A DNA stretch of 63,606 nucleotides, the filler included, from Intoshia linei (lineage: Eukaryota; Animalia; Orthonectida), in assembly GCA_001642005.1 (NCBI GenBank). It is 5 parts of 5 records of this genome, joined end to end, with 100 filler letters (N's around TTAATTAATTAA, not from the genome) between each part and the next. Parts side by side here need not be neighbours in the genome. Positions count along the whole stretch, not along the records: positions 59,557 to 62,378 come from LWCA01002207.1; 4 more parts are not named here. The stretch is one strand, 5' to 3'. The translations under genes were made by a program, and so were the position numbers. Positions within the stretch are counted from its first letter, which is position 1; each line of letters begins with the position of its first letter. The notes under the pieces were generated by a model. The model did no database searches. It saw nothing but the letters and a program-made list of their open reading frames with translations, and was not told where the DNA came from. Below are positions 2,070 to 63,606 of this stretch, piece after piece.

Positions 2070-3104
2070 ATGGTAATTATTATAAAAATTGATTTATGAT
2101 TATGAATAGGACCAGAAAGTAACAAGTAATATTAAAATAGTGTCTTGAATAAAATTTTTAAGCAATCAAAGAAGCTTTTGGGTTATACGATAAAGGTAAT
2201 TACGGAAAGATAAAAACAGAATTACTTGGTCCTTGTTTAAGAACTGCTGGTATAAAATGTTCAACAGGGGAAGTCGTTGACTATATTTCTAGAAACGACA
2301 CAACCAGTAAGGTGTTTGAAACTATATTTTTTTATACCAAATAGAATCAGGCTTCATCACATTCTCACAATTTTCTGAAATAGCAATTCCAATAATATCT
2401 GAGGGTATAACAAACGAATCTGTACTCGAAGCGTTTCAACTTTTCGATGTTAAAAACACTGGAGCAATATCTAAATTTGAATTAAAACATATTATGACAA
2501 ATTTGGGTGATAAATTATCGGAAGATGATGTTCATGAAATGTTGCAGCCCTTTGATACGAATATAAATTATAGAGGTAATAGTTGTGTAACATACAGTGT
2601 TGTTCAATAGATTATAATAATTGCTTTTTACATATTCTGTGGTTACTAATTCACTAATGAGTAGATGAAATTAAATAAAATTTTGAAAATAAGTTATACA
2701 CATATTTAACTTAATTTATCACTCTTAAAGTGTATTTTCATATTAAATACTGATAGACCCTCTTTATATCTTAATCAATATAACATAGTATTCATTTTGA
2801 ACAGAACCACTGTATCTACTTCTGTAAAGATACGCTATCATTAAATTATATTGTTGTCTCGTCGGTGAAATGGTAACTCAATATTTTTTATATATTTTTA
2901 AGTCACAAAATAATGTTGAACTAAAGGAGTGAAATTTTTTACATCGCCCTTATTTATAAGTTCAAATCATTTTACCATCTATGGACTGAATCAAAGATGT
3001 ATCAAATAACACTGTACATGAAAATGTAGGAAGTTATGATATTTCTAATAAATTAATTTAATTATTTAGATCTGATATCCACTCTGTCAAAACAAAGATA
3101 TTAA
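2070..3104 (+). CDS. Calmodulin-like / myosin light chain EF-hand protein
   Basis: ATG|gt at 2070-2072; introns 2073-2109 (37 bp), 2126-2162 (37 bp) and 2307-2344 (38 bp). Spliced product: MDQKVTTIKEAFGLYDKGNYGKIKTELLGPCLRTAG...SGFITFSQF...EAFQLFDVKNTGAISKFELKHIMTNLGDKLSEDDVHEML. The last exon is uncertain (donor 2576; either 3070-3104 or 2611 onward). Confidence 0.85.
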
Positions 3105-3821: not shown

Positions 3822-6800
3822 TTAGTTTAGAACAATTTGTACAACATCTTGGTTGGCCAAAACATGTTTTATTCCAACACGTTGACCCATAAATTTGACG
3901 GAACGACCCCAAACAAGAGCAAATCGGAATCGTTTTGCAAATGTCCTATGAATACAGCCACAAAGAGTTTGTAGTGTTGCTCCGGATCTGGCTATTATTC
4001 CCTCTTCCAAATTTGGCTTCTCACCTTGTTTTCGTGTATAAATGATAATCAACCCTAATTGTCTCCATAAACGATAAAGGAAGTAGTCGATGTTTAACTT
4101 CAAATTACAGCTCAATACAACGTTGTTGCATTGCTTGGCGTAATGATCTAAGTGTTCTATAGAAAGTTGATCGATTTTGTTATAAACATATAAACATGGA
4201 ATATAAACGCAATTATTTTGCAATACATCCACAAATTCTTGAATTCCGTAGTCTTTATTAAAAATAACTTCTGCGTTATATATTTTAGATTCATGTAGAA
4301 TGTTAATAACTTGTGTTTTTGTAATTTTTGTAAGAGGAACCAAAGAACTAACCTTTACGCCGGCAGTAATAGAGGACTTTAAAGGTGTGTATGAAATATT
4401 AGGTTTTTCTTGGTTAAGACGAATACCCATTGTTTCTAATTCATTTTCAATTATATTTTTATGTTTAAGTGCTTTTGTAGCATCCAGCATTATGACTATG
4501 AGATCAGCAGTTCTTGCTACTGATATTACTTGCTTTCCACGACCTTTCCCTGTTGCAGCACCCTCTATGATTCCTGGTAAGTCAAGTAATTGAATGCGTG
4601 CTTGTCGGTATTCTATGATACCCGGTATACAGGTCAAGGTAGTAAATTCATATGATGCTGCTCGTGATTCGGCATTTGTTAATATGTTCATTAAAGTCGA
4701 TTTTCCAACTGAAGGAAACCCTATTAGTGCAACTCGAGCGTCGCCACTTCGTGCAACATCAAATCCATCTCCTTTAGAGCTAGCATTCGCTTCTTTGGTG
4801 TTTATTTCTAACTGGGCTTTATATCTAGATAATTTGGCTCTCAATAAGCCACGATGGTATTCTGTGGCTTTATTTTTTTGCATTCGGCGCATTTCTAAAT
4901 GTTACTTATATTTAGTGTAGACTAGTAAATAAAATTAAAATGTTAGAAATGAATTATACACATCACTCACTTCGAGTAGTTTTATAAAATAAATTAATAA
5001 AAGAACCCTAAATGAGAGATTCGAATGGGGCAGAGGTAAACCAACAACGCTCGATGTACCTAAACAATTTTTAATTAACGATACGTAATGTCACACAACC
5101 ACGCTTACAGTTTAAATTACACCAACAAAATTGTGATGCTATATATTTTGTAATGCTTAATGTGGAAGGGTATGCTCTCTTTTCCAATAATTTCGTCGAG
5201 ACACCGAAGAGGGCATCGGTACGTTAAGTTCATCTCTAGAATGGGGTAATAAAAAATTTGAAGTGCGTTACAAAAAAATCACTGCTCGAATACGCTATCT
5301 AATATTAATTGATACATCTCGACAATATGGAAAAAAAATTCTTATTTGATAACTATACCAGGGCCGGCAAAGTTATCTACACGGACCCCTAGGTGTCCAT
5401 GATAAACATTTGGGGTCTACGCAAAATTTTAAAATAATTAGACATTTTTAGCACATAAAGTCGTTTTTGGTAACTAACATCTGAATCTGGATAATGAAAA
5501 TTTATTTGTTCAATGTTCATCAAAATTAGTCAGGTATTCCAATTTTATAAAAAGACGCGACAATATGAATTTAAAATTATATGCATTAATTTTATTTTAC
5601 AAATTTTTTATAACATTTAACTATGAAAATAAAGTTTAATTTAACTTTTTTGGGAAAAATTTCGATGTTGAGTGGCCGGGTCCAAACTCAACCAATTTGA
5701 ATAATTTTTTCAGGAAAGTGATCACCCTAATATATGATACAGTATAATGCAAAATAAAATTTAGTATAGGTACAATAAAATTTTTTATTTCAATAAGAAA
5801 AATATAATTTAAAATAATCACTAAATTATTTCAAGAAAACTGATTTAATTGCTAATATCAGCATGAAATTTATAGCGATCTGTGATCCCAAAAATGTTCT
5901 ATAAGAATAGACTAATATTATTCTTATTTGTCTGTCGTATAAAATAAGATATTTTTCAATGTTATCTAATAAAAATTTCTTTGCTTTGTCAGAAGTTTAT
6001 TCACTAAACTGAAACTTCTTTCACAGTAATTGAAGTTGACGGAGAATTCCATAGAAAATAATATAATGAGGGAGGTTTTTATTGATCAATATCTAACACA
6101 ATTTTGGTTATGTCGTTGTTATTTAAATCTTTGAAATTTTAAATTTTTAAATAATCTTTTAAATTTAAATCTTAGAGAAATGTATATTATGAATTATGTT
6201 AAACCCCTTTGTGACTGTAAAATTTGACTCTTGCGTCAAATCTATCACATTGATTCAATATTTGTATCAACATAATTGAATTCATTCTTGATGTAAGGCT
6301 GGATTTGACACTGCTTCATTTAATTATTGATTATTAGGTTTGTTCAATGAAATGTCGGCTGATAAAAAGGCCTCCAAGACTGGTACTGCAAAAATCATTA
6401 GACAAATTTACTTAAGTGCAAATATGAACAGTATTCATTTTAGATTTATGCTTAACGAAATTTAAGTTATTGAATTCTTCACGCATTATAAATTCAGCTG
6501 GCTCATAATATGGCTTATAAACTCAGAGATTTTTAGCTGATTATGGAATGCTAATAATAACATAAATTGTATATATTTGAACAATTATTTGTAGAATCGC
6601 ACGTGAATTATAACATCTTTAATACATATATATCTTTAATCATGTATAGCAGGGATGTCCAACATTTTTTTGATGCGATCGACTAATACATTGATTAGAA
6701 AAATGTAGCGGATCGGAACCTATTTCATCAAAATCGCCTTATGGAATCATATAAAAAATGTATAACTAAATATTTTCAGTGTGATCGTAGAAAACATACA

Positions 6801-13300: not shown

Positions 13301-13823
13301 TTACGACTCTTCCGGAATAGGCATATTTGTATCTGGATTAATCTTTGGCTTGATTAAAACTTTGTGTATATGAGGTATTACACCTCCACCGGCAATTGTA
13401 GCTTTTATAAGAGTATCTAATTCTTCGTCACCTCTGATAGCTAGTTGTAAATGTCTGGGTGTAATTCTTTTTACTTTTAAATCTTTACTGGCATTTCCTG
13501 CTAATTCAAGAACTTCAGCAGTAAGATATTCCAAAATGGCAGCTAATAATTTATCAATTTACAATATTAGAATTTACCTGCATAAACCGCTGCTGTCGCC
13601 CCAACTCTTCCATTTGAGGTTACTCTGTTTTTGAGCATTCTATGTAATCTTCCAACAGGAAACTAGAAGAATTGTATGGTTTCATATTCTCATTACAAAC
13701 CTGTAGTCCGGCTCTAACTGACCTAGATATTCCTTTAATTTTAACTTTTCCTTTTGCTTCTTTTCCAGCTTTTCCTCCAGCCTATTTTAAATTTTATATT
13801 AAAAATTTGTATAAATTCACCAT
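13301..13823 (-). CDS. H2AZ: Histone variant H2A.Z (H2Av), 4 exons
   Basis: M|[27 protein letters not shown]|[28 protein letters not shown]|[61 protein letters not shown]. Confidence 0.97.
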
Positions 13824-14128: not shown

Positions 14129-16708
14129 ATGGTAACTATAGAACGCAATAAAAATAGTTGTTTCAGGCCATGTCCGGCACTAGATATAATATTAAATTGA
14201 AAGAACCTAATGACGATTCATATTCAGAGTTTTCATATTTTTATTTGAGTGATTACAAGGTAATTCCATTTTTACTACATATATTTATTGACTAGAATGA
14301 GGATGAACCTAATGGATGTATTGTGATTGATAATATTGACGTTGATTATGCCACAATTGAAAAATTGGTTTTTTATTTAAATTTGATTTACTAACTTAGA
14401 GTTAGAATCAAAAAAACAAAAAACGCAAACTATACGAAGAAGATTTAGTAGATCTTACTGATGGGTACGATATTGACGACCCCTTTATCGATGATACCGA
14501 AGTCGTAATTGGATTTTTTGCAAAAACTTATTTTAATTAGTTTGATGAACAATTACCATATTGGTTGACCACAGATAGAGGAGGATTTTATATAAATAAA
14601 GGAATTTTAAATTTTAAAAGAGTTAATAGAGACGAATCTACACAAATTAATGTTATGCCAGACCTGCAGCTCATCGACAAAGAAAAAAATAAAGTAATAT
14701 TTATTTGTATGTAATTAAATTGTTGTAGATTAAGCAAAAACCAAAAAAAATATGTATTGATGATACCGAATGTGATGATGCTCTTAAAGGTTTTTGAAAT
14801 TGAAATTAAATTAAATTTTAGCTGCAATAGCGTTTGTGAAACCAGAAGACACTGATGTTGTGGAAGTCATGAAAAAATTGCCCGTACTCGTTGTATTTTA
14901 TTAGTGTATCATAATTTTAGATTAGTTATTCAGCAGTCGATACAAAGGAATTGGAGACAGTGATTTTACAGTAATTATAATTGTTAAAATTTAAAATAAG
15001 TCTATGCAAAAATGTTATTTGGTGATCATTAACCTGAAAATTCATACAATTAATTTTTTAAATTCCGTGATTAACTTTTGAATATGATGGAATCATCTCT
15101 TGTGATTGTTGATATTGGGCAGCTGATTATTACATAATTTTTATAAAAAATTAACGTGGCATTGCGCAATGTGCTATAAAATATAAAAGGTCCACAATTC
15201 GAGTCCTTAAAAAACACATTTTATATAATTAAAAGAACTATGTGAAAGTTTTAACTTATCCTATTATGCTACTTGGTTATTCATATTAATTGAAAATATC
15301 ACACTATCTGTCACGCATCAGTAATTTTTTATTTTAAAAATAAGAGAATTAACTATAATCAATTGGATAACCATTGTCAACTTAGTGGTATGAAATAATA
15401 TGGTTGACGGTTGTAAAGTAATAATTTCTTTCAGTTTTTGGTTATAAAAAACGATGATTGAATTTTGAAAAATTTTGTGGGGTAAAAAAATTAATAAATA
15501 CTATTAACAAAATTTTTCCGTCATTTCATATATAATTATTAATTACCTTGCAATGCCCTTATACCTTCTACGTGCCAAACTTTTTAAATATGTATTGCTT
15601 ATCTGGCGTTCACAGTTTTTTTGCGATAGGACTTACTTTTCGAAAAAAATTTCTGTAATCGCCCACTAGTAAAATTATGAAATGTTTTATTAAATAGCAG
15701 GGTTACTACACTTTAAGTGTAATTTATTAATTTTATATTATTTTTAATAGATTGATCAATTATTCTGAAAACTTTGAAGAAAGTGTAAATACTCTGTTTT
15801 GGGCTTGGATAAGTAAATTTTTGCGATCAAAAAAATATTTAATTAATAAAATGTGTATACAAAATGGAGAATCAAAATTGAAAAAGTTGATAAGTTTATT
15901 ACATTGTCAAATTGACAGTCAAATGCCGCTTTCCATTAAAAATTACCAAGAAAATGTGCAAAATTTCAAATCAATGACAATGAAAAACCTTGAAAATTCT
16001 AATGATAAAATTTGTGGTACTTCAATGGTTAGCATTCCTCTGTATAAGCCTAAAATGATATTTGTGTTTACTCCGGAAATTATACTTTTGATGAGGAGAA
16101 TAGTTTCTGAAAAACTATCTCACGTTAAGTATTACTCAATATGTATCAATAATAAGGATGACGCCATTCAATACATTAAGAACTTTTTTAAAGTTAGCAT
16201 CAAGCATCTATGGTCGAAGGGTTGGATATCCGCCACCATATTTTTGAGAAAAGTATCAGTTGTATTTTCAAAGTATTCTAATAAACCTGAAAATAAAATA
16301 AAATTTCATACTGAATCAAAACCAAATCAACGTATTTTACAAACTGGCGTGTCTGACACACAAAGTATTATGGTTGCAACAAATAATGTCGACATAGACC
16401 ATGGATACTCCAAGGAATATCACGATAAATTAAAAACCAATACATTTATGAATTTAGCAAATACAATTCCTACTCCTATTACCAAAATTCCATCTCTCAT
16501 TCAACTATCTCTGGAATCAAATCCAATCTCATCTATCAAAGAAAATTTAGTCAGTACCGTAAATGATATCAATCTCGATAGTATTACGACAAAAAACATT
16601 CAACCAGGCGTAGAAATGTTCTTTGAAAATACAGATCCTGTTATAATATCAGATAACAGTCAAGATGAGGCTAATAACCTCCAATCACAAAGTTTATTTT
16701 CCGGTTAA
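14129..16708 (+). CDS. UBN: Ubinuclein / yemanuclein (HIRA complex H3.3 chaperone subunit)
   Basis: HUN/HRD motif EDLVDLTDGYDIDDPFIDDTEV|FDEQLPYWLTTDRGGFYINKGILNFKR and N-terminal EPNDDSYSEFSY. Multiple mini-introns; the long terminal exon is 15751-16708. Confidence 0.85.
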
Positions 16709-23990: not shown

Positions 23991-24090
23991 NNNNNNNNNN
24001 NNNNNNNNNNNNNNNNNNNNNNNNNNNNNNNNNNTTAATTAATTAANNNNNNNNNNNNNNNNNNNNNNNNNNNNNNNNNNNNNNNNNNNN

Positions 24091-25072
24091 GCAAGTTTTT
24101 GTTAAGGAAACGAATAGATATGCAAAACAAAAAAATAGACAAAAATTTAAAACTAATTTATCAGAATTACGAGTAAATGTATTACGATAAAATGATAACT
24201 CAGTTGTAACATTTGCTAGCAACGTTTGTGGTGTAGAACCTATTGGAAAGGTCAAAAGATGGAGTAAAAAATATAATCACGGAATGGATGGCGTTGATAT
24301 ATTTGACAGAGCGGCTTCGGATTATCGACCCTTGATTAGAGCTAAGAAGTGGTATTTCCCCTTAATGATCCATGGCATTAATGCTCTAATGGTTTACGCA
24401 TGGCGTATGTACCAAATGATTCATCAATGTAAAATGCCTCAATTACAATTTCGAAGAAGCGTAGTTCTTGGTGCAATTACTACATCATTTCCTCGCCCAA
24501 TTACAGGGCCTCAGTTAACAGTATCGACTCCATCTCGATTTGATGCAGTCGACCATGTACCTATTAGTATTCAACCAAGAAGGTGTATTCTGTGTAAAAA
24601 GAATTGTCGCATAAAATGCAATAAATGCCAAAAAGCCTTACACATTAATACTTGTTTTCAAAATTATTATTCAGAATTTGAATAATAAAGTTTTATTTTA
24701 ATGCTTTTGACTGTAATAATTTAATTTTGTTAATTACAATTCGTAAAAAGTTAAAATAATCAAATTAATTTGGTCGTTACAAATATTGAATATAAACTTT
24801 TTTAAATAGCTGTTGCTATATTGACACTTAGTCCTATTGGTTAAATTTTAATTCTGAGTCATAATGAATATCAAGATATATATAACTAAAGTCATTAATG
24901 TTTTTTTCCGGTTAGCGGCTAATGACTACATATGTAGTCATTCTCAGTTTACCCAGTTTTAGTATCTCAAACCCTTAGTAATTTTACACATATTTAAATA
25001 TGCATATATAAATAACACATTTCGAAAATTATAATGTTTGACCAAGTATAAAGGGTGTCGGTCACTAATGGG
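24091..25072 (+). mobile_element. piggyBac transposase 3' remnant with right terminus
   Basis: YNHGMDGVDIFD...KKWYFPLM, Cys-rich tail RRCILC...KCNKCQKALHINTCF; ends ...ACTAATGGG|TTAA. Confidence 0.9.
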
Positions 25073-27802: not shown

Positions 27803-29700
27803 TAGAGTGTCCAGATTTTATAAGTACTAAATAAGTACTTTTCGAAATGTCTTAGAAACAAAAAGAACAATAAAATTTGAATTGAAAGTTCTAAAAATTT
27901 GATATTTAAAAAGAATTAACAATTTAAAAAGAATTAACAATTTAAAATATGAAATGTAAATGTTAATTTTATTGGTATTTATCATTGCAAATTATTTTTT
28001 TACATAATTATCTATGATTTTTCAAATGTTTGTAAAAATCAGTACTTTTGTTAAAATAATTACTTATGGACACACTATTTGATATTAAATTTAATTAAAG
28101 CGTCAATTTTTCATAAGTAGAAAATAAGTAGATTTTACTAAGAAACAAAAATAAACTAATCTTTCAAATTGAAACAAATTACATAATTATTACGGATGCA
28201 TATTTTAAAGTTTAATTATATTTATCACCAGAATATCTTATGACACAATTCTGTCATTTAATAATGTTTTATAGAATTCTGTGCAAGTTTCTATACTGTT
28301 TTATCTCAGTAAAATTACAGATTTTAATGTTTTCACATTTAAATTTGTTTTTTGATCAGTCCAATAATTATTGGCCATTGTAAAAATTCCTTCTACATAT
28401 GCATTAGATGAATGTAAAGAGTAATAGAATTGAAATAATTTCTTAAATTCAATATTTTCATAGAACTCTTTCCAAAGCATTATAGATTTCAAGTTTTGAA
28501 TTGAAGATTCAACTAAATTATAAATTATTACAATGATTATAATATATTACTAATCACGAATTTATTGAATATGTCATCACGACATATATGATTTAATTTG
28601 TTGATATCATTATAAATATTTACACATTGTTCTACGTTTGTCCATGTAAAATCAGTTCTATCAATTATATATAATAAAGGAGACAAAAGTGTTACAGAAA
28701 GTGTCCATTTTTTTAAATAATTGAGCAATGCCTCATAAAATCCAATTATTTTAGACTTTAAGAATAATTGTTGGTTATTATTGAATGATAATAAAATTGG
28801 AATAAATTTTGACGGTAAAAAATATGCTTTCATTCGACATTCAACGTTGTCTATTAGAAATGAAATTTTTTTTGCAGCAATTCCGAATTCAACCTAGTTA
28901 AGAATATATTTTATATATATATATAAATAAAATACCTGGTTTCCCTCAACTCTTAAAACACATTTGTGTACTAAACTACCAATATTTTCAAGAAATAATA
29001 TCCAGAAAAAAGAATATTGATTTTCAAAGAATGTTTTTAATTTGATTGATGCATCAGTATGTACAAAATAATGTTTCAATGAATACATCATATATTATTC
29101 TATTCAATGATGGAGCTAATGCTAACCACCGTGTAGCACTGTACCACAACAATGGTTTGTATTCTATTTCTAGATCTTGACATATTTTTTTTAAGATTAA
29201 TGTTCGAGATGTGTATGTATGAAAGTGAAAATAAATATTAATGATAATTTTTTTTAAATCAATTTGTAATAAATTTGACGCATTTTTAATAGCATTATTC
29301 AAAATATGCGCGTTGCACCCAGTTGCAATTAATTTAGCATCAAAAAATTGATTGAGTCTAGATAAAACATTGTTTGTTCCAGCTTGATTGATACCTCCAA
29401 AGTTGCCATTGGTATTATCAGCTGAAATGATACATTTGTATTGAACAACCCAATCATTATTGAAAATATTAGAATATTTTGGCATTTTTATATTGACAAT
29501 AAATGAAAATTTAAATTTAATATAAATATAAAATATCAGTAAATATACAGTTTAAATTGAGCCAATATCATTTTATTATGTAATATTTGGTTAAATATAT
29601 CCATAGTATTTATAATCTACTTATTTTCTACTTATTTTACATGTCAAAAAATAAGTAGTTTTTCAAAAATTAGTAGATATAAACGCTTTAATTTAAATTG
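27803..29700 (-). mobile_element. Degenerate hAT transposase (Blackjack-like)
   Basis: Broken ORFs with ISADNTNGNFGG, GCNAHILNN (CxxH), TRWLAL and SSNAYVEGIF. Terminus-like TAGAGTGTCC at 27803. Confidence 0.8.
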
Positions 29701-35799: not shown

Positions 35800-36170
35800 T
35801 TATTACAATTTAAATTATCTAATTATCTTCCTCTATCAAAAATGTAGTACTCGATCGTATTTGCATATTATCAGTGAATAAATTAATTTTGCGTCTGTGA
35901 TTGCATCGATTCAATTTACAGGTAAATATTCTAAATGTCCACTATAATGATTGACTATAATTATAATATATATTTTTTCATGTGCCGAGCGAGGCATATG
36001 TCTCATTATGTCCATTTGCCAAAGATCATTAAATTTATGGACTTGAAGTGTCTTTAGTGGAGAATCTTCTCCACTATTCCTTACTTTTTGTGTATTAAAC
36101 GTCACACATTTATACATGTATGTATAATAAATACAATACAGTATTTCGAGAATGATGCAGTATCGCAACT
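35800..36170 (-). mobile_element. Gypsy integrase remnant
   Basis: YKCVTF...PLKTLQVHKFNDLWQMDIMRHMPRS...YIIIIVNHYSG. Confidence 0.7.
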
Positions 36171-37230
36171 TTCATTATTAATCTTCATAATTTATAGTTT
36201 TGATTAAAATAAATTTTTATATAAATACAATTAAATTTTTTTTATACAAACTAAATTTTATCGCGGGCACGATAACCCTGGTACATATGCATTGCAAATT
36301 AATGAAAAAAATTGTTGAAACTTTTTAAATTCTTAAAATTATCTTTAAATTATCAATGAATATGAGAAACCTTATAAAAAATTAATTATTCACTTGTTCA
36401 ACCAAATTTGTTTAAATTTGAATAAATATATTGTAGTGTGAATATTTTTTTATAAATGCAGTTTAATGAACCAATTATTCTAATTTTATCAAAATTAATT
36501 GTCAATTTATTTAAAACATAATAAACACATTTTTATATCGAAATAAACTGTACACAATTTTTCTAACCAAATTGACCCGACATCAATAATTAAAAATAGA
36601 ATATCGATTTTTACATTAATGATCGTAATATGTTACATCGTTACATTAATGATTAATAATATCGTAATATTATTTTAAGATATTATTAGGGCTATAATTA
36701 TAAAAGGTTTATTTAAGATATATATAAAAATAAAAGCATTATACTTATAGTTAAATTTTAAAATATGTAATCGATTTATTGTACATTGCACTACAAATTT
36801 TAAGTTTAATATTACTTTTATTACATCCATTCCATATGTTTTAATATTTGAAAATATTTTTTTCAATGTTATTATGCAGGACTGTTGTTGGAGCATTGTC
36901 TATTGTACTGACCACAAGTATCATTATAATTGTTATAAGTTAAATTAATTATTCACGTTTTGTATTAATAAAATTAAGAATAATAATAATATATGTATAA
37001 AATGCATTAATATCTTTAATTTGATTGTGAAATATAATATTAATATTCTATAAATTTTAAAAATAATATTTATGGTGTTGAAATTCGTACGTAATCATAC
37101 AGGTTCAAATAGAACAGACAAACTGAGTATTTTTATTTTTTTTATACTAAATATTAAACAAATGATATATTACTGGTTATTAAATTTGAAACTCCAGGAC
37201 CATTTTATTTCAACCAATTTTTTTAAATTA

Positions 37231-47427: not shown

Positions 47428-48007
47428 GATTATTTTTTCGAATGAATCAATGATTTGTGTGATGGGCAACCAATGTAAAAATGTGCGCAGAAGATCATGC
47501 GAATCGTCAAGGCCAGAATGCATCATACAAACAGTAAAATTTTCTAACAAAAGTAATGGTTTTGGGGATATATCTTCTGTGGGAATGGGTGAATTACAGA
47601 TTTGTGAAGGTATAATGAACCAGCATACCTATAAAAATGTATTAAAAAATTTTTTTGATGAAGTGACACAACGGCACATTGATCAGAAGTATATATTCCA
47701 ACATGATTCCGCTCCATGTCACAAAGCCGAATCTGTAACTTCATATTTCCAAAATGAAGGTATTGCCATTCTTGAATGGCCCGGAAATTCCCCAGATATG
47801 AACCCAATCGAAAATTTGTGGGCAAAATTGAAAGAGGAAGTTCATACAATTCCAATAAGATCAAAATCGGAACTGATTATTCGCCTACATACAGTATGGA
47901 ACAATTCTTCTAATTTGAAAAAACTGGCAAAAGACGTATTAATAGTATGCCGCGGAGAGTTATGGCTCTCATACATGCTGAAGGAGGTGTTACAAAATAT
48001 TAATTAA
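47428..48007 (+). mobile_element. Tc1-like DDE transposase remnant
   Basis: IFSNES, FQHDSAPCHKA, WPGNSPDMNPIENLW. Confidence 0.9.
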
Positions 48008-49277: not shown

Positions 49278-50103
49278 GCACTGGTCGAAGGTCAAAATTA
49301 TCGATAATTTTAATTATTACTAAACGATAGAGCATATCATTTTACATAGAAAAATGAAATATTATAAAAATTAATCGCGTAGATTTCATACAGTTCACCT
49401 TTGAAAATGCCATTTATCCATTTTTTTAATATTAATAACTATGGTTAAAGTAATATATAAGAATATATTTTATATTATATGTCATTAAATATTGTAAACT
49501 AAACTAAATTATAATTGTAGTGGATTCTTCACACATTAATTATAAAATAAATAAAAATTAAATAATTAGTGTCTACAGCATATTCGAGATTAAATAAACT
49601 TAATTTATATATTATAATATCGTTAAAATTAAGGAATCATCTTTTTATAATTTTTTTTTTAATCTGCTGTTTTTAAATAAACTTGTATCCAATGTTATTT
49701 TACTATAAATATGCTCTATTTTGGCTTCTAACAAAATCTTCTAATGGATATAACTTTTATTCTAGTGAATGAAAAGTTTTAATATTTTGGCATATCATTT
49801 TATTCATATATTAATATGTAGATACATTACATTACTTACATTTTGTTATTCAAATACAATATAATTCAAATATAATATATTATAGTTTTTGAGAAGTGTC
49901 AAATAATGTATTAGGTCGTTTCATAAGTAATGTCGTTTTTATTGTAACTTTATTATANNNNNNNNNNNNNNNNNNNNNNNNNNNNNNNNNNNNNNNNNNN
50001 NTTAATTAATTAANNNNNNNNNNNNNNNNNNNNNNNNNNNNNNNNNNNNNNNNNNNNCGTTGACTGTAATCAGATTTTTCTAGCAATGAGATTATATGAT
50101 TTT

Positions 50104-54197: not shown

Positions 54198-56540
54198 TGT
54201 AATCTTTCAAGGACGTTTAGAATAGTAAATAAAGAAATATGTAAAACATAACTTTGTTATACAGATGTTAGTATACAACGTTACACCTCCATTCCAGTAT
54301 ATGTGATGTGTGAGAAAAGAGAAAAAAATTAGAGTGAGATATATGTTTTAAGAATGGAAATAATTAATATCATAATAATGGAATAATTGAAGATTAATCA
54401 GTTGATGAATCATATTTATCATATATATAGTTTTTTTTAGATATGAGGGTGTTATAATTTTACGAGGTGGCCGTCCTGAATTAGTAGGAGTTTGATTAGT
54501 AATATCAGAATTCATAGTTAGTGGTGTATAATAAGATCCATTATTCATATACCAATGTAATGGGTGACCCATTTGATGCGCTCTACGACGTTCACATTCT
54601 TCACGTTTGGTTAAAATTTAACCGTTAAATACTCCATCTATTCTCTATGGGTGGCTGATGATATATCGACTACTGCCAAACCATCTTAAATTCTATCATA
54701 ATTGAGGATGTCTTTAGTTGGCAATTGTACGTTATCCTCAATTAATGAATTATCATAATTGGTTAAATCAACATTTAGAGGTAACTCTAGTGAACAGTTA
54801 TCATGAGGGATATATTGCTGTTTTAATTTTGACGTAACCGGATCATTTCGTTTAAAAAATCGAGAATGAAAGTTAGGTTGTTTTGGTACATGTTTATCAA
54901 AATTTCTTTTAACCCTATTTTGGTATTTAGGTTGGTTTGATTTTGCTGATTGTATAAATCCTTTTCTGGAATTATTTGTTAATATTGAACGAGGGATGAA
55001 TGGCAAGGACAAGGAGCGTCCAAATAATAGTTCTGCAGGTGATTGTTGATTCTTGACAGTAGGTATATTAGGAATATCAGTAAGAATTTTTAATATTTTC
55101 AAATACCAATTATTTTTGTTTTGATTTGTAAGACAGCGAATTTTATCATTTATTGTTCGATTCATTCGCTCTACTTGACCAACACCTTCATGTTGATATG
55201 ATGATGTAAAAGTTTTCTTGATCCCTATAACTCAGCATAGATTTTTTACAATAGCTAAATCAAATTGGGTACCTTGATCGGTGTGAATTTGATTTGGAAC
55301 ACCATACCTTGCGACAATATTATTTAATATGTTATACGCAACATAATCTGCAGTCATTTCTTCAATAGGAAAGATTTCCGGCCAACCAGTAAAATGATCG
55401 ACCATGACCAGGTCTGTATTGTATTTCATAATTATAATTTCCCAAATTTTGAAACCATCTAAATTTCTTGCCAATTAATTTAGAAGAATTTGCTATTGAG
55501 GTAAGAGGATTGTAATCAGTAAGAATGATAAAACGTTTTCCCAGTAAATAATGTTTGAATTTATTAACGGCGTATACGACAGCTAAAGCTTCTCTGTCGA
55601 CTGTGCTCTAGTTGCTTTCTACAGGTATCAATGATCTGCTGGCATATTATACAGGTCTGTTATCTTGCGAAAGAATAGCTCCTATGCCTAACTCGGAAGC
55701 ATCAGTTTCCAACACAAATTGTTAAATATCATCTGCTAAAGCCATGACTGGAGCGGAACAAAGGGCTTCTTTGATAATTTTATAAAAAGTTTCGCATTCA
55801 GAATTCCATTCAAATTTATCTCCTTTTCTCAATAGTTTATATAACGGTTCACCGATTTCCGAAAAATTTTTTATGAAACGTCTATGATAGTTAGTACAAC
55901 CGAGAGATCGTTGTAATTCCTTGACGCTGTTTGGAGTTTTCATTTTCATTATAGCATTAATTTTATCTGGATCAACCCGTATTCCGTTAGTATCAATAAT
56001 GTGTCCTAGGAAATGTATTTGATTTAGGCCAATATGGCATTTACTTGATTTTAATTTTAAACCTTCCTTAGCTTAGCTATCCTTAGCTATCCTTTTAAGA
56101 AGTAATATGAGATGTTTTTTATACTGATTGAGACCTTTTAAAGCAATAATATTATCATCCATATATCCGTGTTCAAATGGTAAACCTTTCAATACACCAT
56201 CCAGCATTCTTTGACAGGTTGCTAGCCCGTTCACTAAACCATATGGCATTACTTTAAATTGAGAAAGTGTTCTACTAGGACCAACAGAAAAAGAAGTTTT
56301 TGTTTTATAATCATTTGAAAAAGGAATTTGCCAGAAACCGGAGCATAAGTCAAAGGTAGAAAAATATTTATGTCCTTTCAAGCTATCAAAGATATGAGTT
56401 GATTTTGAAACAGGATACATGTCTCGTTTAGTGATACCGTTTAATTTATGATAATCAATTCAGAATCTATCTGTACCATCTTTCTTTTTAACTAGAAGAC
56501 ATATATTGGCTACCTCCTTGACTATCTTGTGCTTGTCTTT
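54198..56540 (-). mobile_element. Degenerate Ty3/Gypsy retrotransposon (RT-RNaseH-IN, PPT, short 3' LTR)
   Basis: RT motifs FSTFDLCSGFWQI, MPYGLVN and YMDD; RNase H ETDASE..REALAVV; IN RYGVPNQIHTDQGTQF and SPAELLFGR. Domain order is RT-RH-IN. PPT GGAATGGAGG is followed by TGTAAC(54285)...ATTACA(54198). Confidence 0.92.
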
Positions 56541-57402: not shown

Positions 57403-58870
57403 CTAGCTTGGCTGTTATGTACTTCGTACAAACAGCATCCTAGCTCTGCCGAGAGCGAAATTAGTTAATTCTACCAAAAAAATAAATGCAATAATAAAAT
57501 TTTACTTAAAAATGCTAAATTCGTTATTATCAATCCTTTAAAACAGTGGTTCTCAAGGGGGTCCATGTGGACCCATTAGTGGTCCACAGGAAATGTTTAG
57601 GGGTCAACAAGAAAAATTTGGGGTCCACAGATAAATTTTGGGGCAACGAAAAAAATCCATCACTAGAGTATTTTACAAAACTACGTGACAATTTGAAATT
57701 AATTAAAATAAACAATATCTTCAATAATGAAGTTATCAAGAAAGATGAAGGTTTAAAAGCTTCCTATGAAGTTTCTATAGCAAAAGCTTGTAAACCTCAC
57801 ACATTGGAAAAAACTGTAATTTTACCAGCTATTTCTGTAGCTATTTCGACTTTAATGAATAAAAATCCAACTGAATTTACTGGTCAAATCCCTCTGAGTA
57901 ACTTATCAGTATCAAGACCAGGGGTGTCAATTATGCGGCCCGCATTATAAATTTTTATTTTTTATAACAATTTTTTACACATATTTCTTATTTTACACTT
58001 TTTTTATATATTTTTTATGATTTATTTATTCATTATTACAATTTTAACATTATTTTTACACTTATTTTCCATTTTTATTGTTTCATATTTCATTTTATAA
58101 ATTAAACTTATTATAAATTAATTATTATAAATCTGTGTATTACATATATGTAATTTATAAGAAAAATAATATCGTGAATTAATTTGAGAAAATAGTCATT
58201 TGTTGTATAATCCTTATGATTATTTGATTAACGTTTTCGTTTTCTTACATCAGTGATCGTAATGTGCATTTATATTTTATTTTAACATGCAATCATCAAT
58301 TGAAACGTTAATGATGCCGATGAATTTTCAACCGAGGGTCGCGAAATTTATCAAGGGGTCGTGAGAATTTAAACACCGTATAAAATATAAATAAAACTGA
58401 ATATGCTTTTTTAATATTTTTATTTATGTGAATTGATAAGATGTTTGGAGTATATAGAAAATTTTTGGGTCGCGAAAATTTATTATGTTTATAAGAGGTC
58501 GCGAACACAAAAAGGTTGAAAACTACTGGTCTACACCTTTTTCGATTCAAATTTGCACTCGTTTTATTATATTGTCAAAATTTTAGTTGAAGGGTTAACA
58601 AGAAGTGTACTTTAAAATAGTTGTATAACAACTATTTTCAATCGAAAAAACTATGGTGCAAAATTTTATAAAACAATACAAGCATCGATATATAAGGTAG
58701 CGTACGACTAAGATTTTTTTATAATTAAGGGTCCACGAATAATATAAAATAGCTAAAGGGTCCATGTACTTAAAAAAATTGAGAACCACTGCTTTAAAGG
58801 AATGGTTCATAAACTTATTTCACGTTATCTTTTAATTTAAAGGTAATTATTCTCACTTAATTTTATTTTC
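57403..58870 (-). mobile_element. Helitron fragment interrupted by a nested hAT element
   Basis: Helitron 3' end at 57403-57543 resumes at 58792 (CTTTAAAGGAATGGTTC). Confidence 0.65.
57544..58791 (+). mobile_element. hAT (Buster/SCAND3-like) deletion derivative with nested MITEs
   Basis: TIRs CAGTGGTTCTCAA / TTGAGAACCACTG; TSD CTTTAAAA / CTTTAAAG; remnant ASYEVSIAKACKPHT...QIPLSNLSVSR. Confidence 0.85.
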
Positions 58871-60630
58871 TAATATTGGTGTAAATAATTAATAATAAAC
58901 AATTCCCGATCATACCAATCATTTATATACACTTATATATAATAGCCCGATAAATTATCTACACTATCATACAAGTTTAAATTTAAATAATTGAGTTTAA
59001 TTTTAAATTGTGTAATCTATAAATAAAATTTTTTTCTCGATTTTGTAATTGTATTATTTTAAAAAATATATACGTACAGTGTTGTTCAATAGATTATAAT
59101 AATTGTAAAAATTTTGTATTTATCTTCATATATTTTGTATATTAAAACCTAAATAAAATGTTTGATCTAAATAAGTACTACCGATAAGTATACATCGATT
59201 AAAAATATTGTTGTTTTCAAAATTAATGTACACGTAGTAAGGATGAATTTAAGTGTCTACGCGAAAAATTGCGTATTTAAGAAATATGTATCATAATGAA
59301 GAAATTTTGTAATAATACGATTTATCGACCTGCTAGTTACATATATTTGTTAAATTATAATTCCTAACATCGCTCTCTTTCAGAAATTTAATTTTAAAAT
59401 TTAAAATTTGATAATTTAAAATGGGCAAAAGTAAAGATATTTATTCCCAAACAAAANNNNNNNNNNNNNNNNNNNNNNNNNNNNNNNNNNNNNNNNNNNN
59501 TTAATTAATTAANNNNNNNNNNNNNNNNNNNNNNNNNNNNNNNNNNNNNNNNNNNNAGTTTAAATGTAAATATGAATAAATTATATCTTTTTTATTCTTA
59601 TTGTATAAATGATAATAATTATTATTCCGTTATCGATTACTGTATATCAGTGATTCTCAAATATGGCCGTTTTTATATTTTTCGTGGTCCACCGAATAGT
59701 TTTAATAATTTGAATTTACCGATATTTCAATTAACCTCCAAACTAATTCTCATTAATTGTCAACTACTCTTTTATTAAAATTTTCTATAAATAAAATAAA
59801 AATTGTGGTCCGCAATGGTCCTAAATTATTTTATATTGATAAATCTGGCCCTTCTGAAAAAAGGTTGACAACCCTGCTGTATACATACAAACATATATTG
59901 TTTGGTACATAGCACAACACACTCGGATCAGGGAATATTAATATTTAGACTCAATTAGGTTTTAACATAAAATTTCATCATTATTTAGTATAAAATAATT
60001 CAGGGTAGAATAAAAAATTTCAATGTGGTCGAAATACCGCGATTTTTTTAAAGTACCAGCAAGTGTAGGGAACGAGGTTAATGCTATGCCAAAAAACATA
60101 CAATAACCGATGCAACAATCTATAAAATAATTAATTCTAATTATAGTACATGTAACATTTTTTCGAAGTTAATTAATAAAATCATATTACAAAACAAAAC
60201 AGCATTCAATATTTATGGAAAAGAAGTAAGAGACCAACTAATTACCCTTAAATTATTTCATTGGATAAATCAGAACAATTTCACACCCAGAATGTCATTT
60301 GCGTTAAAGAAAATAATAATTTAAAAATACAAATTCTTATTTCACAAAATTATCTAAATTTAAAATGTAATATGAAGTTTTGATTATCTACAAAATTATG
60401 TATATGTACTTGTAGTAACATGGTTACTCATCAAACTTGTTTGATTGATCAAATTGATTGAAGATTACAAAATACTTATTGTAGATATTTTGTAAATACA
60501 TAGTTAAACATATATCTCATTACATATTATTATAATACAACAATTATAATAATTAAAATTAAAGAGAGAAATAAAAATTTGTAAGATTATATTTGAATTA
60601 ACGACATTTAATATTTGATACATCTACAGA

Positions 60631-62216
60631 ATGAACATTGCAAAAGATGAGAACAAAGCAACAAAAGAAAGAAAAAACTCATGGAAAGGGATAGGAGTAT
60701 CCCAAGAGAATTCCAGCAGGCCGCAGACGCCAGAATGTAGGCACACCTAGATAGATGGATAGTTCCTGCTTACAAGGACCTGAACAAAGAGAGAGTTTTA
60801 GATGAAAGTAGAAGTGTAAATTATATAACTCCATCTCAGGATTCACGAGCAGTGCCCTTCAGTGAGAACTTATATACATAGAAGATTTTACTGGATCTTC
60901 AGTATGTTAATAACGACATTGAAACCCTCAGGAATTTCTTGTACAGCAAGATTGGAACTGGTGAACAAGTTGATCCACTAATCGTGGCAAGTTACATGTA
61001 TGTTTTGGCCAGAATAGACTTTGGAACCTTTCTAGAAGATATCAATTATGTACCATCTGTGTATGCAAAGCTGGAGAATCATCGAGGTTAGAAGACTTCG
61101 TTGAGGTCAAAGATTCTGAACACACTCTAGAGATCCAGTAGACAGCCCTGACGTATCAAAGTTCACCTATTGGATTCTTTTGTATTATCTATCACACCTC
61201 CGAATAAAAAAGGACTCGAATGCTGATCTTGCTATTTACAAAACTCGTACAATGAAAAGGGTAAAAGATATTCTGAGAGTAAGTAACGTCATGTTACCCT
61301 TTGATCAAGTTGACACTCTAAATTCAGGAGACATATCATTGTCAATAATCGCTTCCAATCAGGAAGTGATAACATTGACAGCGATATATGACCTTTTTCT
61401 AGGTCATGCAAACATTGTTTTGCCTATTAAGTCTCTAAGATGGGCGACAGTATGTAAGAGAGGAAAGGACATCATCACGCTAAACCTGTTGACGGACTAC
61501 ATTTCTATGTATGAAAAGAGTATACATTCAAGAGTCATTTCGATGATGTTTACAAACTCCATGATCCAGAATTACAAAAAATGTTCAAATTGAACCCGAA
61601 ACACTACGTATCGATAGGACTAGTGTGGTATCATCGTGCTTTAAACCTGGTCCCGAAATCTGCCTACTCAGCCATTGCTTGCCCAAACTGCTACATGTAT
61701 TTAGCCACTAGATTGTATTTTAAAGGGATCCAGACTTTCGGTGGTACCAGGCTAGATGGAACCTCGTATTATCAAATGATCTTATTAGCCGTGCGAACTT
61801 CCATTTTGGAAACCGCCAACCCAGACAATGATACCCTCAATCTCAATAAAGAAAGCATGGATAAATTCAAAAAGCTTGCGGACTGCATGAACATTCACAA
61901 TGAAGAAATGTTTACCCTAATCTCATTGCGAGTATCACTATATGCTGGTGATCTCTTGTTTGAAGCAAAGGACTTGGCATTCTTAAGGTTACATGTAAGA
62001 AGGAGCCTCAAAGAGAGGGTACTCTTAGAGAATTCCTTCACAGGATAGCCTTTGACACAGAGAATAAAAAATCGGCCAGTTCCTTGGAGATATTTGAAGG
62101 AGGTGACTAAAGACGTTATGAAGAAAATGCAGGACTGTATAAAAGTAAAAGATGAAGCAAGACTAAAAAAAGAAAAGGAGAATCCTATACGACAAAAACC
62201 CATTGAAACAAAATGA
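60631..62216 (+). pseudogene. Endogenous viral element: rhabdovirus-like nucleoprotein (N), near full length, with stops and frameshifts
   Basis: Intronless island visibly richer in GC than its flanks. Ordered motifs AIYDLFL, LRWATVCKRGKD, WYHRALNLVPKSAYSAIACP and IRQKPIE parallel rhabdovirus N motifs (VSV AAVDMFF, FRYGTIVSRFKD, YLIDFGLSSKSPYSSVKNP, LREKTIG; recalled from knowledge, not searched). Confidence 0.78.
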
Positions 62217-62378
62217 GACCACTACTCAGGTTGGGTCAAATGAGAACCTTTACCTAATATTGATGCTATGTCGGTTTCTAATAGTATTATAAAAAACATA
62301 ATATCTAGATATGGAAGTCCATCACAAATTCAAATGGATTGTGGTAAACAATTCCAAAATAGTGTTATAAAAAACCTA
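62217..62378 (+). mobile_element. Gypsy integrase core fragment abutting the viral N sequence
   Basis: DHYSGWVK*EPLPNIDAMSVSNSIIKNIISRYGSPSQIQMDCGKQFQNSVIKNL, clearly homologous to DHFTGWPEIFPI...IVARYGVPNQIHTDQGTQF at 55232-55474. Confidence 0.85.
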
Positions 62379-62809
62379 NNNNNNNNNNNNNNNNNNNNNN
62401 NNNNNNNNNNNNNNNNNNNNNNTTAATTAATTAANNNNNNNNNNNNNNNNNNNNNNNNNNNNNNNNNNNNNNNNNNNNTAATTGAAATGAACTAATTTCG
62501 ATTTTTTTATTAATTTTTAAATAAAATTATTTTTTATATTTGTATCTTTATCATTTGGATTCCTTTTCATTCCATGCATTCATACATAACCAATGACCAT
62601 ATGAGCTTTTATTCAAAATATTGGTCAAAGTGGACGTTTTTTATGTGCGATTCGACATACAATTTTAAACTTAGTTTGTGTATAACAAAATATTTTTTTA
62701 TAAATTGGTACCACCAAACTACTTTACAAAGGTTTTATCAAAATGGTTCTATCCTTTAGATTTTATGATAAATTTAAACGGTTGACACAGCATTTAGTGG
62801 TCTCAATGA

Positions 62810-62991: not shown

Positions 62992-63247
62992 TTTATTATA
63001 ATATAAAATAATGAATAGTTTATTTAAATAAGATATATTACGAAAAAAATATTATAATAACGAAACACTTGGAATATGTAAATTAAAATTATATTAACAA
63101 CCCTCACAATAATTTGGTNTTTATTATAATATAAAATAGAGAATAGTTCATTTAAATAAGATATAATTACGAAAAAAATATTATAATAACGAAACACTTG
63201 GAATATGTAAATTAAAATTATATTGGCAACCCTCACAATAATTTGGT
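62992..63247. repeat. Tandem duplication of about 127 bp separated by a single N (likely assembly overlap)
   Basis: Two near-identical copies either side of N at 63119. Confidence 0.7.
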
Positions 63248-63606
63248 AACAAATATAATATTCAAATTTCCTTTTAAAATCTGTCATAAAATTACTCTTA
63301 TAAATGGTCATATCTGCTTAATTATATGCAATTTATATATGCATTGAATAAAATTTAAATATAATTATTGAAAAATGTGCAATTAAGAATTTTATCATGA
63401 AAAAAAATTTCCCGAATATATTGTGAAACATTAATTTAACTATTGCTTCTAAAAAATGACTTAAAAATTATTTTAACAAAAAATATCTAATAAATTTTAT
63501 TATATTATGGAATCTTTGTATTGACTATATTCATTGCAAACATGACTTTATAATTGCAAACATGATTAACAAGATCGTGAATGTCTTGTATTTGAATAAA
63601 TTTATT

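Follow-up and report, generated by a model that had tools for sequence, protein, structure and literature searches.

The locus at positions 60631-62216 raises two questions: whether this stretch of the Intoshia linei genome is the remnant of a gene from a negative-strand RNA virus, as an initial annotation had proposed, and, if so, by what route a viral gene came to be copied into the DNA of an orthonectid. It was studied within a window of 63,606 nucleotides, filler included, in which five parts of the assembly are joined end to end. The N gaps with a central TTAATTAATTAA linker at 23991-24090, 49958-50057, 59457-59556 and 62379-62478 are artificial contig joins, so that order and adjacency across them are uncertain. 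The assembly contig that carries the locus (59557-62378; 2,822 bp) has such N runs and linkers at both ends, and its neighbours in the window may therefore not be its true neighbours. Public sources list the gene model of the locus, P0001, as A3Q56_08266 of Intoshia linei (phylum Orthonectida), which bears out the orthonectid host that the initial annotation had raised as a possibility, and the UniRef entry for the same model, A0A177AQE6, already carries the automatic name 'Nucleocapsid protein'. P0001 matches seven stretches of the locus without a single difference.

Composition and reading frames of the island

The locus forms an island of 1,586 bp with a GC content of 0.385, against 0.239 in its left flank and 0.256 in the window as a whole. 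It has the highest GC content among all stretches of that length in the window; the runner-up (0.350) covers a host gene for a GTPase. In the frames homologous to the other copies described below, GC at third codon positions is 0.41, compared with 0.20-0.26 in all five other frames tested, three of them host-like and two from retroelements. Stop-free frames extend over 61120-61593, 61515-62048 and, past a TAG at 62046, 62049-62216, with shorter pieces on either side. The initial description of a GC-rich island with broken open reading frames is accurate, and the regions 61180-61593 and 61581-62048 are open as claimed; there are, however, further breaks beyond those that it listed. The read-through that it proposed to 62216 does not follow the homologous frame, which in alignments with the sister copies departs from the 61515-62048 frame near 61995 and continues in another frame to about 62107.

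From tblastn alignments of nine sister gene models, together with Pfam PF00945 and nucleoprotein (N) matches in PDB, the broken gene is placed at 60631-62107 (+). It amounts to about 490 codons, and its N-terminus is about 50 residues longer than that of VSV N; this extension is common to several copies, P0008 among them. The first codons (60631-60710, +) start from an ATG at 60631 that agrees with the P0008 alignment (9 of 22 residues identical, E 0.005), and this frame breaks near 60700. The N-terminal arm and the start of the N-lobe follow at 60708-61049 (+), a segment drawn from sister alignments that contains in-frame stops at 60738 and 60879 and is interrupted near 61050; the region of P0003 matching it aligns to VSV N residues 14-128. 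A short N-lobe piece with a frame break on each side (61052-61132, +), to which four copies align at 48-70%, leads into the helical N-lobe and core (61132-61554, +), in which arginines at 61201 and 61258, DLF at 61381 and RWAT at 61438 are found before the frame breaks again near 61555. The C-lobe (61560-61994, +) carries the motif LNLVPKSAYS with its lysine at 61656 and is broken near 61995, and the C-terminal piece (61997-62107, +), with REGTLxEFL at 62012, is closed by a stop at 62108. Beyond it an A-rich tail holding IRQKPIE occupies 62108-62216 (+), the GC change point coming later, near 62274; this tail may be a further part of N, viral untranslated sequence or sequence of the next gene.

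Similarity to rhabdovirus nucleoproteins

The profile check proposed with the initial annotation, made against Pfam PF00945 (Rhabdo_ncap; curated cut-off 26 bits), gave a match above the cut-off for one copy and none for the pieces of the locus itself. No single ORF piece matches at E up to 10 (0 of 9, then 0 of 4 in a second scan), and P0001 stays under the cut-off at 18.5 bits (E 0.001), whereas the sister copy P0003, which shares 65% identity with the window across 347 columns, passes it at 35.9 bits (E 5.2e-9) and is the one gene model of the ten in the family to do so. Matches of ORF pieces to the HMG-box, Pfg27 and lipocalin families of Pfam were short and far under cut-off, and were rejected.

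Searches of PDB with P0001, P0002 or either long ORF alone gave no N match. At E up to 10, the matches were VSV N for P0003 (5 of 5), VSV or rabies N for copy profile A1 (6 of 6), lyssavirus-type N in both lobes for A2 (4 of 4) and VSV or rabies-type N for A4 (7 of 7); the remaining two of the five copy profiles, A3 and A5, found no N. The E-values of these N matches are weak (0.008-1.7), and unrelated matches of like size occur, namely a designed protein at 0.03 with A3 and insulin-degrading enzyme at 0.013 with A5, the latter via the non-viral tail of P0002. The N assignment therefore rests on the Pfam score of P0003 together with colinearity in both lobes: the N-lobe and C-lobe matches are individually weak and run colinear with both VSV and rabies N.

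A decayed cellular or transposon gene family with a chance likeness to N would also explain why the pieces are without a direct significant match. It would be consistent with the ESM Atlas, which returned TPR-like, helical-repeat and nameless clusters with no N among them (its model was poor, pLDDT 0.35, and this result was taken as uninformative), and with a fold search that gave no match: AlphaFold2 on copy alignments of seven and five rows gave poor models (pLDDT 36 and 40), and Foldseek with the first of these, itself of low pLDDT, returned nothing at E up to 0.001. We nevertheless regard a non-viral origin as exceedingly improbable, since P0003 scores above the PF00945 cut-off, the colinear matches involve two different rhabdovirus N proteins, cover both lobes and have RNA-binding residues in place, and the check for a better cellular or transposon match came back empty in Pfam, PDB and 1.84 billion proteins. 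We are highly confident that the island is a real endogenous rhabdovirus-like N element, as the initial annotation had claimed.

That claim had been built on four ordered N motifs, AIYDLFL at 61381, LRWATVCKRGKD at 61435-61470, RALNLVPKSAYSA at 61635-61673 and IRQKPIE at 62187-62207. All four are present at these places and in this order, and three of them are kept in two or three other copies each. LNLVPKSAYS is kept in three other copies, and in the profile A2 alignment no gap separates its region from the rabies KSPYSS region. IRQKPIE, in contrast, was rejected as the C-terminal motif: its distance from the KSAYS lysine is 178 codons, where VSV has 122, and blastp with P0002 gives it no support. 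REGTL at 62012 fits better, standing 119 codons past the same lysine against the 122 from VSV K286 to R408; REGTLxEFL is kept in P0002 and P0010 and partly in P0005, and on this conservation and spacing it probably corresponds to the site of the arginine conserved at the C-terminus (VSV R408).

RNA-binding residues are given in the accessible part of PMC7552012 as R143, R146, K155, K286, R317 and R408 of VSV N and R149, R168, R225, R323 and R434 of rabies N, and the conservation of Arg143 is confirmed in the accessible part of PMC3260278. Basic counterparts are found in the PDB alignments for several of these: the arginine at 61201 corresponds to VSV R143 and rabies R149, a lysine stands at R146, the arginine at 61258 corresponds to rabies R168, and the lysine at 61656 takes the K286 position by way of the rabies motif. 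The counterparts of R225 and R408 are placed by motif and spacing only, the RWAT arginine being separated from the KSAYS lysine by 218 nt, against 72 residues between rabies R225 and the aligned lysine. A glutamine is aligned to rabies R323, which is not kept, and VSV K155 and R317 lie outside the alignments.

Set beside rhabdovirus N (PF00945; VSV N, PDB 2gic; rabies N, 2gtt and 8b8v), the Intoshia gene is alike in its colinear N-lobe and C-lobe, its KSxYS motif, its core length and its basic residues at R143/R149, R146, R168 and K286, with R225 and R408 added by spacing. It differs in being very distant (PDB E 0.008 at best), in its roughly 50 extra N-terminal residues, in the glutamine at rabies R323 and in being broken, and no P, M, G, L or other viral gene stands beside N on the 2,822-bp contig. 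The source virus appears to have been rhabdovirus-like and is known here from its N gene alone. The edges of the island were scanned with the gene-start and gene-end patterns of the vesiculovirus type; neither was found at the edges, these patterns being those of one genus while the signals vary by genus. The start and stop signals of the virus may have been lost at capture.

Copies elsewhere in the genome and decay of the locus

A profile search of 1.84 billion protein cluster representatives returned nine proteins at the threshold of E 0.001, all of them I. linei gene models, and none outside Intoshia. Known rhabdovirus N proteins likewise missed this threshold, so the empty result outside Intoshia speaks for a lack of close relatives, not for a lack of relatives. 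Word-index protein searches found Intoshia proteins only; a viral contig scan with P0003 confirmed none of six candidates and a metagenome contig scan with the C-lobe none of 128, both scans being able to detect close relatives only. Counted by contig and locus tag, the N family comprises ten gene models on eight contigs, P0001 included, and the locus is one of at least eight N-fossil loci in this genome. All nine sister gene models align back to the contig of the locus, with best E-values from 4e-12 to 3e-75, which, together with the motifs kept among the copies, goes beyond a chance resemblance.

Identities range from 44 to 71% to the window and from 36 to 85% among the other copies, most of them falling at 55-71%, and the lowest values probably include mis-spliced residues. 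Over 504 differences in 1,340 aligned pairs, the mean BLOSUM62 score is +0.22, against -0.26 to -0.38 expected of unselected single-base changes, and of the 314 columns with multiple coverage 138 show no variation, where 67 would be expected to show none, both tests being biased upward by local alignments, shared ancestry and non-independent pairs. That the copies are mostly 55-70% identical and the changes conservative argues for several captures of already diverged viruses. The pattern of substitutions suggests that most of the divergence arose under selection in living viruses, with separate captures afterwards, and repeated infection by an RNA virus lineage without a living member in the databases searched is likely.

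Several of the sister models are composite. In P0003, on a 49,425-bp contig, the C-lobe half precedes the N-lobe half, as if a tandem or rearranged insertion had been annotated as a single gene. N pieces are fused to a weak tyrosine recombinase in P0002, to a gag-like Cys-rich stretch (recognised by eye) in P0005 and to a DDE transposase in P0009.

At the locus itself, the five frame breaks and two in-frame stops located above are present in both assembled versions of the sequence, the assembly and a contig from a public sequencing run. The P0001 model bridges them with seven exons and six gaps of 41-66 nt to give a 429-residue protein. If a viral N had been domesticated as a spliced host gene, as this public model would have it, the gaps would be short introns that hop over the breaks; three of the six do start with GT and finish with AG exactly at the mapped boundaries, and tiny introns had been ascribed to this organism by the initial annotation. 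Yet every one of the six sits on a stop or frame break and skips sequence that the sister copies retain and that matches VSV or rabies N in the alignments, and the predicted introns are therefore best read as prediction artefacts. Moreover, of the six codons at which the two versions disagree, five encode different residues, which, small as the sample is, fits the expectation without selection. A domesticated gene is in our judgement hardly credible; the locus very likely makes no protein, and the N gene is dead. The UniRef entry A0A177AQE6 describes the same locus, and its label agrees with the N assignment, but takes it for an intact host gene of seven exons where we find artefactual introns spanning breaks. 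Several 'genes' in the public proteome are viral fossils joined by false introns.

The linkage of the island to its flanks in DNA, which the initial annotation had named as a check, is borne out by one contig of 2,274 bp from a public run presumed to be DNA (depth 24), which spans 60411-62378 and covers both edges, bridging the left by 220 nt and the right to the end of the assembly contig; the three DNA runs come from one sample, which may be the source of the assembly itself. Compared with the window it carries nine substitutions and a single 3-nt gap, and none of the breaks coincides with an indel. The contig and the window part ways upstream of 60411, in a stretch with short repeated sequences, and 60032-60316 is nearly without coverage in the DNA run contigs. 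The last 30 loose letters of the 2,274-bp contig resemble window positions 60580-60605 by eye, which may reflect a repeat or an alternative arrangement of the left flank.

A real element might still belong to the DNA of the nemertean, which we take to be the host of this parasite, or to that of another organism in the sample. The assembly contig is short, at 2,822 bp, and without a host gene, the GC content of the island is far above that of the window, and all the DNA evidence comes from one sample. Such a foreign origin is very unlikely, however, given that the flanks on the same contig have the GC content of the window (0.24), that parts of the AT-rich left flank (60411-60630), which shares one DNA contig with the island, recur in other contigs of the run, and that sister copies lie on contigs of 24,950, 49,425 and 56,312 bp of the same assembly.

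The integrase junction and a proposed route of capture

Directly after a TGA at 62214-62216, the island gives way to a remnant, absent from the initial annotation, of an LTR-retrotransposon integrase core (62217-62378, +; Pfam rve E 0.0025, profile positions 31-82), which has one internal stop and is cut by the contig end. Its rve score is below the Pfam cut-off on its own; the fragment shares 43% identity (E 1e-13) with a pol remnant's integrase, located at 55238-55399. The integrase begins abruptly at its first catalytic Asp codon, the residues that precede this Asp in the pol remnant being missing at the junction, and the join is base-to-base, with N and integrase in the same sense. The pol remnant itself (54689-56459, -) is decayed and contains reverse transcriptase (RT; E 4e-17), weak RNase H-like and integrase (E 1e-4) matches; we take this order to be of the Ty3/gypsy type, Bel/Pao being also compatible. 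As a viral gene present as DNA joined to its flank, intronless, decayed and adjoined by an LTR-retrotransposon remnant, the locus is a non-retroviral endogenous viral element.

We propose that the element would have arisen by template switching. Its source would be plus-sense N RNA of a rhabdovirus-like virus; the reverse transcriptase of an LTR retrotransposon would have switched from its own RNA to the N RNA as template, and the DNA copy of the N gene would have become fixed in the orthonectid germ line. The N-to-integrase layout is what such a switch would leave, the capture mechanism being read from one junction at which 110 nt of uncertain origin (62108-62216) separate N from the integrase. 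Taken jointly, the propositions that the element is dead, that it is one of at least eight loci and that it was captured via an LTR retrotransposon form a reading that we favour with moderate confidence.

With a single junction behind the proposed switch, its main rival is an adjacency that arose later by chance. The same N fossil would then have entered by another route, such as LINE-type retrotransposition or DNA-break repair, and the integrase would have come to lie beside it later, through insertion and deletion in a region full of repeats. The window abounds in transposon remnants (RT, integrase, DDE), so that a chance neighbour is conceivable; sister models extend into elements of several kinds (DDE in P0009, a weak tyrosine recombinase in P0002), and neither LTR nor other retroelement sequence could be recognised to the left of the island. 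A repeat search of the contig found no terminal repeat and no clear target-site duplication around the island. We judge this alternative unlikely, though of some weight, because the join is base-to-base, in the same sense and within the integrase core at the first catalytic Asp, and because the 3' edge of the island has no poly(A) tail, the sole A7 run, at 62165, lying inside the A-rich tail.

Template switching by an LTR retrotransposon has a counterpart in mosquitoes. According to the accessible part of PMC5497376, insertions of rhabdovirus origin in Aedes are situated mainly next to Ty3/gypsy elements, and template switching has been put forward to explain them; half of these insertions map to N according to the accessible part of PMC6455143. 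The N-to-integrase join would be a direct trace of this proposed route. Like mosquito (Aedes) NIRVS, the Intoshia elements are intronless N copies in an animal genome, present at several loci and adjoined by LTR-retrotransposon sequence, and by analogy the locus may work in the same way; unlike them, they reside in an orthonectid (Spiralia) instead of an arthropod, and no close living virus was found. Aedes NIRVS are a source of antisense piRNAs, and any present role of the Intoshia element would be as a source of small RNAs.

Among the papers listed in the literature searched, which took in little of the subscription journals, no report of an endogenous virus or a rhabdovirus in Intoshia or Orthonectida was found, and the locus extends rhabdovirus-like viruses and their germ-line capture to this phylum; the kind of element and the UniRef N label were already known, which limits the surprise. 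Schistocephalus solidus rhabdovirus 1, a rhabdovirus of a parasitic spiralian, is vertically transmitted and passes to the hosts of the tapeworm according to the accessible part of PMC7305300. It is living and non-endogenous, unlike the Intoshia fossil, and the likeness between the two is ecological. A viral-family RdRP is reported from the I. linei proteome in Fig 1A of PMC6396948, its family being given there by colour only, and the seven supplementary files of that paper contain no Intoshia match; this RdRP could represent the L gene of the virus lineage behind the N copies. The sampling of a virome survey, as described in the accessible part of PMC11097642, includes Orthonectida, and its supplements might list viruses of this phylum.

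A wider picture can be sketched tentatively, and we hold it to be possible rather than probable. The Intoshia copies would be the sole record so far of a deep, unnamed rhabdovirus-like branch, of the rank of a new genus or higher and with a longer N, by which orthonectids were repeatedly infected; LTR retrotransposons would have captured several of its diverged members into a mosquito-style archive within an animal that ranks among the most reduced, perhaps as part of a small-RNA defence, with possible passage of the virus between parasite and host. The ten gene models can serve as probes for a living virus in orthonectids or their hosts, and the N copies add to N phylogeny a point remote from every virus sampled.

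Elsewhere the window holds ordinary eukaryotic genes and transposon remnants. Host genes at 3825-4901 (-), 13304-13558 (-), 2320-2607 (+) and 15731-16705 (+) encode, in this order, a DRG-type GTPase, histone H2A, an EF-hand protein and a ubinuclein domain. A second integrase fragment (rve E 7e-4) lies at 35914-36171 (-) and a Tc1-type DDE transposase frame (E 1e-13) at 47429-48004 (+). Three further stretches, at 24191-24682 (+), 29057-29551 (-) and 57519-57947 (+), have no supporting Pfam match and by eye resemble remnants of piggyBac-type and hAT-type transposases. A sequence of about 125 bp occurs twice, nearly unchanged, at about 62995-63250, with a single N between the copies, possibly an assembly overlap.
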